Positions 20,740 to 21,037 of a DNA stretch of 34,486 bases are shown here, one piece after another. The first letter of the stretch is position 1. Each line of letters opens with the position of its first letter. Both the position numbers and the translations under genes were made by a program. Source of the stretch: Prevotellaceae bacterium. GTDB taxonomy: Bacteria; Bacteroidota; Bacteroidia; Bacteroidales; UBA932. The DNA is taken from assembly GCA_031289415.1 (NCBI GenBank), contig JAITPN010000096.1, positions 1 through 34,486 on the forward strand, in the 5' to 3' direction. Under the pieces are notes generated by a model. The model had not been told where the DNA came from. It saw only the letters and a program-made list of their open reading frames with translations, and did no database searches.

Positions 20740-20997
20740 ACATCGTGGAGATTTGTTGCCGGAAGTTTCGGCGTGCCCTCCCCACATGGGGGATTTATTC
20801 CCGGAACTTCCGGCAAGATTTCCCCACGTGGGGATTTATTCCCGGAACTTCCGGCGAGATTTCCCCACGTGGGGATTTATTCCCGGAAGTTCCGGCAAGA
20901 TTTCCCCACGCGGGGATTTGCTCCCGGAACTTCCGGCGGGATTTCCCCACATGGGGGATTTGTCGCCGGAACTTCCGGCAGGTTTTCCCCAAAGGGG
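20740..20997 (+). repeat. Tandem array of about 6.3 copies of a 41-42-bp unit: CCCCAC(G/A)TGGGG(G)ATTT(A/G)TTCCCGGAA(C/G)TTCCGGC(A/G)(A/G)GATTT
   Basis: Direct inspection. One degenerate copy then 5 good copies (20780, 20822, 20863, 20904, 20945), plus a partial ending CCCCAAAGGGG. Each unit has two palindromes. Confidence 0.9.
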
Positions 20998-21037
20998 CTT
21001 GGCTTTTTATTTTCTATTTTCTAAATTTCTAAAACAA

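Follow-up and report, generated by a model that had tools for sequence, protein, structure and literature searches.

The REP and BIME clusters of Proteobacteria are extragenic palindromic repeats that influence how transcription ends, how stable mRNAs are, how gyrase acts and how the nucleoid folds, and to our knowledge they have been studied almost entirely in these bacteria. Their definition combines a GT(A/G)G head, an imperfect GC-rich palindrome of about 20–40 nt and a cognate RAYT (Y1) transposase (PMC2817692). The REP325 cluster of E. coli, which is of the BIME-2 type, consists of six units with two different palindromes each and a constant linker (Y-l-Z2); read-through transcription extends into it, and cruciforms can form there (PMC4550694). 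Here, we describe a candidate extragenic palindromic repeat cluster in Bacteroidota, a phylum for which none was described in the literature searched. It is a tandem array of 41-bp units lying between rplQ and a gene for a surface lipoprotein in the complete 34,486-bp contig of a metagenome-assembled genome (MAG) held at NCBI as 'MAG: Prevotellaceae bacterium', hereafter the window.

Four other systems are relevant for comparison. The BOX elements of Streptococcus pneumoniae are intergenic and built as boxA-boxB(n)-boxC, with a 45-bp central module in variable tandem number between distinct terminal modules; they have a stable fold, affect neighbouring genes and exceed 100 copies per genome. 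Within the Bacteroidales, BrickBuilt of Porphyromonas gingivalis combines a minisatellite and a transposable element of the miniature inverted-repeat type (MITE), with a non-palindromic 23-nt unit (AGAYCATARTATCCTCTCRTRTG), a leader and a tail, and terminal inverted repeats that match insertion sequences (PMC4596501). The sopC centromere of plasmid F is made of 12 units of 43 bp, each with one inverted repeat (PMC3177203). In the 5' untranslated region (5'-UTR) of hmw1A and hmw2A of Haemophilus influenzae, a 7-bp repeat and a long hairpin cleaved by RNase III set the level of the adhesin and drive phase variation (PMC12721329).

The array is real and statistically unambiguous. Tandem Repeats Finder (TRF) returned a period of 41 bp at 20744–20991 (6.0 copies, 85% matches, score 310), and six repeat registers follow each other at 42, 41, 41, 41 and 41 bp, with decayed edge copies from 20706 on, degenerate edges being a typical feature of minisatellites; the initial annotation, which had seen about six direct copies of a 41–42-bp unit, was correct on this point. 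Two motifs, the 12-mer P1 (CCCCACRTGGGG) and the 13-mer P2 (CCGGAANTTCCGG), alternate along the array. P2 occurs six times, five times exactly and once with one mismatch, and P1 is matched at five sites with at most one mismatch, while a sixth, decayed P1 copy (CCCCAAAGGGG) ends the array. Matches to both motifs are confined to 20759–20978 and are found nowhere else in the window, and their counts were matched in none of 100 shuffles. As had been noticed, the central base of P2 is G instead of C in a single copy (20883–20895). The description of each unit as a double palindrome holds for the alternation but not for every copy, as a perfect palindrome, with an ACGT core, is seen in just two of the 12-mers, and the rest have ACAT or ACGC cores. 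Likewise, the reported ATTTATT spacer exists, as ATTTATT(C), but is one of two kinds, the other being C(A/G)AGATTT; in the orientation of the minus-strand unit, the linkers read AAAYCTTG (linker 1) and GA(A/G)N4-5T.

The centres of the palindromes are 20.5 bp apart throughout the array, which amounts to two helical turns and bears out the proposal that the sites lie on one face of the helix. The layout is therefore one of helix-phased tandem direct repeats that each contain inverted-repeat motifs, a description of arrangement that does not imply binding. Since each 41-bp unit is nearly complementary to itself, the whole array forms a single long imperfect palindrome (inverted repeat with 112-nt arms, 71% complementary), and either strand is predicted to fold as one hairpin of about 250 nt (−155 and −157 kcal/mol, z = −10.9 and −10.0). 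P1 (CCCCACGTGGGG) and P2 are unrelated sequences, with only 58% matches at a period of 22 (TRF).

We favour, with about even confidence, the reading that the array is a lineage-restricted extragenic palindromic minisatellite of uncultivated Bacteroidales whose architecture is nearest to that of BIME-2/REP325. Like REP325, it has six tandem units with two palindromic motifs each, constant linkers and the potential to form cruciforms or hairpins, and it lies outside genes and after gene 3' ends, here in the gap between rplQ and the lipoprotein gene, and between convergent genes at the two further loci described below. It differs in its unit of 41 bp, against 77 bp in REP325, and in its almost loop-free palindromes of 12–13 bp, against imperfect ones of about 35 nt in BIME-2. 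A BIME-2 cluster repeats one palindromic unit in alternating orientation, whereas P1 and P2 are unrelated and not inverted copies of one unit, and neither is flanked by a GT(A/G)G head; for these reasons, we do not claim membership of REP/BIME itself. The host phylum also differs from that of the E. coli clusters, no REP/BIME family having been found for Bacteroidota in the literature searched. Binding of gyrase, IHF and HU, a trait of the E. coli clusters, would be hypothetical for the array. With BrickBuilt, the array has in common its occurrence in Bacteroidales, its strictly intergenic, spacerless tandem structure, its presence at several loci and its association with assembly breaks, and an influence on neighbouring transcription is proposed for BrickBuilt as it is here; its unit is, however, 41 bp long and doubly palindromic. 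It also resembles BOX as a modular intergenic tandem element with a stable predicted fold, whereas distinct terminal modules and more than 100 copies per genome are traits of BOX.

Among 185,579 species-representative genomes covered by one pattern scan, the array family was found in one further contig; it belongs to a Tannerella sp. MAG (JAIRZY01, locus L001), and its array lies at about 4300–4745. The minus-strand unit of the window (CCCCACGTGGGGAAATCTTGCCGGAAGTTCCGGGAATAAAT) and that of L001 (CCCCACGTGGGGAAACCTTGCCGGAAATTCCGGGAGACTTT) are identical at 34 of 41 positions, and the two arrays align by blastn over 70 nt with 85.7% identity (E 1.7e-11). The GC content of the Tannerella genome is 59% against 46% here. 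The unit has a polarity, given by the minus strand of the window, as a unit profile scored by nhmmer reached 44–48 bits on this strand and 14–23 bits on the plus strand relative to the Tannerella array. In a blastn comparison of the two intergenic regions the array units align and the flanks do not. The L001 array lies between convergent genes, a radical-SAM gene on the plus strand (ending at 4236) and an ABC-2 permease gene on the minus strand (ending at 4813), which are unrelated to those flanking the array in the window, and no gene start adjoins it. Inside L001, five 42-bp units and one hybrid unit are interleaved in the array; all six have other palindromes (TCCACAGCCGTGGA and ATGACATGTCAT), which are again placed 21 bp apart. 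One stem position of the L001 units forms a series from CCCC/GGGG through CCAC/GGGG to CCAC/GTGG, reflecting either pairing restored by selection or a correction templated by the hairpin itself.

The position after rplQ was then compared in ten loci of relatives collected through L17 homologues (L063 to L072), in which the rpoA–rplQ region is 70–81% identical to that of the window (78–81% in all but L069, at 70%). No 41/42-bp array is present downstream of rplQ in L063, L064/L065, L067, L068, L069 or L071, and the alignment of the relatives' downstream regions gave no homology to the window beyond the terminator; L072 is uninformative, as its sequence stops 259 bp past rplQ. In L063, which has the most similar L17 protein (90% identity), a similar terminator hairpin is followed by 185 bp and a convergent gene, and in L064/L065 rplQ runs directly into the gene for enolase. 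At the L066 locus, which also comes from a 'Prevotellaceae' MAG, rplQ and the next gene, a convergent one, are 900 bp apart; at 6787–7330 this gap contains (AACGGGG)x6, rich in G runs, followed by a 41-bp array of 3.3 copies and a 42-bp array of 3 copies, together with several GC-rich perfect hairpins (e.g. GCGACGAGGTTGCACCTCGTCGC). The L066 units, with the core CCCGCAGCTTGCGGG, are mostly unrelated in sequence to those of the window; shared with the window and Tannerella units are CGGGAGAC and a CCG.A..TT.CGG core, and in the comparison with Tannerella a G-C to C-G swap keeps the palindrome. Its sister L070 is 85% identical in nucleotide sequence through rpoA–rplQ and about 220 bp beyond, and has neither the heptamer nor the array nor the other hairpins of L066, the homology ending 47 bp before the L066 heptamer.

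The gene that comes right after rplQ differs in every related genome in which it was compared (the window, L063 and L066–L068), and these genes mostly encode secreted or surface proteins, namely the BACON/InlB-repeat lipoprotein, Fib_succ_major and Ig_7 proteins, an OmpA-like repeat protein and a Cys-rich protein. At the site downstream of rplQ, the conserved cluster meets lineage-specific cargo, in many cases genes for surface proteins, and arrays occur there sporadically; the site appears to be a hotspot for accessory genes of this kind.

Because the same family occurs without a gene start, because its palindromes can be exchanged with the spacing kept and because close relatives have no array, the comparison does not support an array family dedicated to the lipoprotein gene. 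It appears at unrelated intergenic sites, typically just past a gene 3' end, and we infer that it is mobile. The constant trait is the layout, with palindromes every 20.5–21 bp, and not the sequence; this persistence points to the formation of hairpins or cruciforms as the relevant property. Slipped-strand mispairing and unequal recombination would give rise to such arrays and alter their length, and new unit variants would emerge and then amplify within the array. Hairpins or cruciforms behind a heavily transcribed operon might act on DNA topology or through the binding of gyrase or a nucleoid protein; alternatively, hairpins in the RNA may block, terminate or be processed.

Several observations weigh against a palindromic minisatellite of this kind. 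REP/BIME families are defined by tens to hundreds of copies dispersed around the genome, whereas only two loci in the genome scan carry the same unit family, and neither the rest of the 34-kb window nor the rest of the 8 kb of L001 contains a further copy of the unit, even a solo one. No 41-bp array was found by TRF in metagenome contigs (57 single pattern matches) or viral contigs (3), these single matches being attributable to chance, as all fall in high-GC coding sequence or in CRISPR arrays. The homology of the L066 units to those of the window and Tannerella is suggestive only, and the 41–42-bp period common to L066 and the window could be a coincidence. As for the copy number of the array, its source is a MAG assembled from short reads. 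Finally, loop-free perfect palindromes on one helical face also suit dimeric DNA-binding proteins, and linker 1 (AAAYCTTG) equals the palindromes in its degree of conservation between the window and L001, which would also fit sequence-specific recognition by a protein.

These last two points lead to the proposal of the initial annotation that the array is an iteron-like set of operators, on which P1 and P2 would bind one or two dimeric proteins cooperatively on one helix face and thereby activate or repress the lipoprotein gene. The exact spacing of the loop-free palindromes, the conservation of linker 1 in two distant genomes and the short distance of 46 bp between the array and the ATG, which contains no consensus promoter, are consistent with such a role, but the array that is homologous in L001 lacks any gene start, and both it and that of L066 lie between two gene 3' ends. 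The wholesale replacement of palindromes within the L001 array with retention of the spacing, and the nearest relatives having no array at all, also argue against operators. Moreover, no regulator gene is next to the array, the neighbours encoding a PLD protein, a ROK protein without a helix-turn-helix (HTH) region and an outer-membrane protein, and no close orthologue of the lipoprotein was found with which co-occurrence could be followed. We therefore regard control of the lipoprotein gene through operators as unlikely.

We consider it very unlikely that the array is an artefact of short-read metagenome assembly, whether through collapse, expansion or a chimeric join. An artefact would agree with the MAG origin of the contig, with a rise in GC content from 0.44 to 0.53–0.55 across the array and with the fate of the L17 gene in a short contig assembled independently (L002, Logan SRR14710897), which stops at 20580, 20 bp before the heptamer repeat described below. 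Exact searches with the lipoprotein and PLD proteins retrieved no other assembly of the locus. However, the homologous array of L001 was assembled independently in another genome, the units vary in an ordered manner and are degenerate at the edges, and both flanks share an unusual depletion, not seen in related genomes, in GGCC, GATC and CTAG (observed/expected 3/50, 7/78 and 0/78 on the left, 2/47, 6/53 and 0/53 on the right), this matching tetranucleotide avoidance on the two sides of the array excluding a chimeric contig. Doubts on the assembly only concern the exact copy number.

Over the whole contig the same three tetranucleotides are depleted about ten-fold or more (5 GGCC where about 96 would be expected, 13 GATC instead of about 131, 0 CTAG instead of about 131), and GGCC is not depleted in the related genomes L064 and L066–L068, which suggests a strong, lineage-specific restriction-modification pressure. 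A role of the array as a sponge for restriction sites was discarded, as CCGG is not avoided in the genome.

The features of the locus are collected in Table 1. The intergenic gap between rplQ and the lipoprotein gene measures 702 bp (20336–21037), of which the array takes up about 250 bp. It had been described as filling all the space before the ATG, which is not the case: after rplQ, the last gene of the cluster, come a terminator-like hairpin, two TAnnTTTG boxes, the (ACCGCAC)13 repeat, the array and a 46-bp A/T-rich stretch that separates it from the start codon.

Table 1. Positions in the window of the features at and around the array.
Feature	Position	Strand	Evidence or remark
rpoA	18773–19756		
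rplQ (ribosomal protein L17), last gene of the ribosomal-protein/rpoA cluster	19775–20335	+	Pfam Ribosomal_L17, E 5.8e-37
Terminator-like hairpin directly after rplQ	20359–20400	+	Inverted repeat, 18-nt arms, 83% complementary
TACCTTTG, Bacteroidetes-type −7 box, candidate promoter, with GTTTGTAAG 23 nt upstream	20488–20495	+	Putative function
TATCTTTG, second −7-like box, candidate promoter, abutting the heptamer repeat	20591–20598	+	Weak −33 match (TTGC) only; putative function
(ACCGCAC)13 heptanucleotide repeat	20600–20691	.	TRF period 7, 13.0 copies, 98% matches
Decayed left edge of the array (TTCCGGCGTTCCGG, CGTGGAG)	20706–20747	.	Repeat copy at 62% identity; sequence reading
Core array, six 41-bp units	20748–20999	.	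TRF, repeat and motif searches, nhmmer, folding
P1 (CCCC-N4-GGGG) copies	20780–91, 20822–33, 20863–74, 20904–15, 20945–56, 20987–97		
P2 (CCGGAA-N-TTCCGG) copies	20759–71, 20801–13, 20842–54, 20883–95, 20924–36, 20966–78		
A/T-rich stretch, 46 bp, before the start codon	20992–21037	+	Predicted unpaired
Near-match box TAAATTTC	21023–21030		In the A/T-rich stretch; too near the ATG to serve the lipoprotein gene
Surface lipoprotein gene: BACON and five List_Bact_rpt (Listeria-Bacteroides repeat) domains; signal peptide MITSKTNKLMTAAVALLLVVASC	21038–23116	+	

The identification of the downstream gene as one for a BACON/Listeria-Bacteroides-repeat lipoprotein was supported by the domains and the signal peptide found. 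No close orthologue of the lipoprotein was found, the best match other than itself being 54% identical and restricted to the repeats. These repeat domains correspond to a 216-bp coding repeat (4.2 copies, 82% matches) at 21421–22320, which was recently amplified and represents a further hazard for assembly.

The absence of a conventional promoter between the array and the gene was confirmed, with no exact TAnnTTTG in this interval. The suggestion of a long 5' leader is plausible given the exact TAnnTTTG boxes upstream of the array, at 20488 and 20591. The first has the GTTTGTAAG and TACCTTTGC elements of the two ribosomal-protein promoters of the contig, which are a 65-bp duplicate at 3778–3842 and 9482–9546 (positions 3822 and 9526), the distance from GTTTGTAAG to the box being 23 nt at 20488 against 19 nt in the ribosomal-protein promoters. 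The array thus probably lies within a leader of 440–540 nt transcribed from one or both of these candidate promoters. In the predicted fold of a putative leader RNA starting at about 20500, the heptamer tract is essentially unpaired, as are the 35 nt that precede the ATG, and the array pairs with itself, so that a single hairpin of about 250 nt would stand shortly upstream of a start region that is A/U-rich and unstructured. The array, acting as a structured barrier or a processing site, would then incidentally affect the expression of the lipoprotein, and the adjacent (ACCGCAC)13 could be a second, more classical source of length variation.

A more dedicated role would make the heptamer and the structured array a contingency locus for an adhesin-like gene, a leader-RNA switch on the model of the hmw 5'-UTR. 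As in hmw, a 7-bp repeat and a long, here predicted, RNA hairpin are found between a candidate promoter and the gene for an adhesin-type surface protein: (ACCGCAC)13 begins two bases past the TATCTTTG box, upstream of the InlB-repeat surface lipoprotein gene, an arrangement that is classical for expression varying with repeat length, the predicted long duplex of the array is a potential substrate of RNase III, and the order of heptamer then array is also that of L066. However, the hmw repeat is itself an arm of the hairpin, whereas here the heptamer is predicted to be unpaired and a separate 41-bp array makes the hairpin, and no gene start follows the array in either L066 or L001. A switch of this type appears improbable to us.

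Among the related loci, L066, L067 and L068 likewise contain frequent intergenic 7-bp repeats (e.g. L067 5809–6203), and within the window a second short heptamer repeat, (GTGAAGC)x4.4, occurs at 7896–7926, directly after the rpsC terminator.

Besides rpoA, rplQ and the lipoprotein gene, the genes near the array are those for the PLD, ROK and outer-membrane proteins mentioned above, and the remaining large open reading frames (ORFs) of the window fit ribosomal-protein genes by their size and order. This gene content bears on a further possibility, that the array serves a ParB/Noc/SopB-type or nucleoid-associated protein as a site of loading or segregation, a chromosomal counterpart of sopC. 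P1 contains the CACGTG core of canonical parS, which counts in favour of this idea. The layout is also that of sopC (PMC3177203), with a tandem period close to four helical turns and inverted repeats, one or two of them, in each unit. Yet sopC is carried by a plasmid beside sopAB and has one 16-bp motif per unit, whereas the array is chromosomal, with two motifs in each unit, and partition genes are missing from its surroundings; no regulator, partition, ParB-like or transposase gene was seen among the 17 ORFs of the window that were scanned. The flanks of P1 are unlike those of parS, a blastn search of the array against plasmids and phages gave no match, and the absence from close relatives would be odd for a segregation site. 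We consider a loading or segregation site very unlikely.

Other identities were rejected. The array is not a CRISPR array, in agreement with the initial annotation, as its units are contiguous without unique spacers. It also remains without a match among recognised elements: in Rfam 15 no family reached its gathering score in the window or the related loci, with only sub-threshold matches to generic or miRNA-like hairpins, and no description was found in the literature searched. The 23-nt unit of BrickBuilt is unrelated to the 41-bp unit, and a MITE with an internal minisatellite was dismissed because the window and L001 loci have in common no flanks, no conserved leader or tail segments and no terminal inverted repeats. 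A coding function does not hold either, as the period is not divisible by three, the signal peptide of the lipoprotein starts at 21038 and the translations have no homologues, a search of the protein database for spurious ORFs over similar arrays giving no match; all three plus-strand frames are open across the array, one of them in frame with the lipoprotein from a TTG at 20753. An inverton was discarded too, as no inverted repeats bracket a promoter.

If an analogous but unrelated family exists in Bacteroidales, it would represent an independent origin of such genome features. With its two palindromes of 12–13 bp at a fixed spacing of 20.5 bp, the array is a compact system in which the geometry of palindromes can be separated from their sequence. 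Such arrays also break short-read assemblies beside a universal marker-gene cluster, and they sit at a variable site where lineages have inserted different surface-protein genes. A bolder proposal, which we put forward as speculative and rather doubtful, is that 41–42-bp arrays form a functional class of uncultivated Bacteroidales, in which phased palindromes would be kept by selection despite sequence turnover, at the end of the ribosomal super-operon or between convergent genes. They would serve as cruciform platforms that load gyrase or a nucleoid protein and insulate neighbouring, often horizontally acquired, surface-protein genes from the supercoiling and read-through that heavy transcription brings and, together with the heptamer, would make downstream expression variable with length. 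Should the array and the heptamer be merely neutral minisatellites, they would deserve an annotation note only.

Several minor observations concern the same loci. At the end of the L064 contig (10067–10343), a composite array alternates blocks of 19-bp units (GGTGAAAGCGCTTCGCGGC, with the palindrome AAGCGCTT) and of 21-bp units (TGCAGGGGCTCACTACACTTG), and is another intergenic minisatellite of the same clade. A conserved non-coding segment of about 250–300 nt follows rplQ in L067 (5508–5800), L068 (2229–2520) and L072 (2650–2881); it has its own TAnnTTTG promoter and no match in Rfam, and may be an undescribed small RNA gene. In the window, the 3' end of rplQ contains a perfect 15-bp tandem repeat (AAGAGGCGACACCGC, 2.3 copies, 20298–20331) that gives in-frame repeats of five residues in the variable C-terminal tail of L17. 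Further upstream, the ribosomal-protein operon is split between rpsC (7039–7821) and rplP (9628–10047) by the phosphofructokinase gene pfk on the minus strand (8145–9125), which is flanked on both sides by about 0.3–0.5 kb of non-coding sequence (interval 7822–9627); the exact 65-bp promoter copy at 9482–9546, the original being that at 3778–3842, apparently restarts transcription past the pfk insertion.

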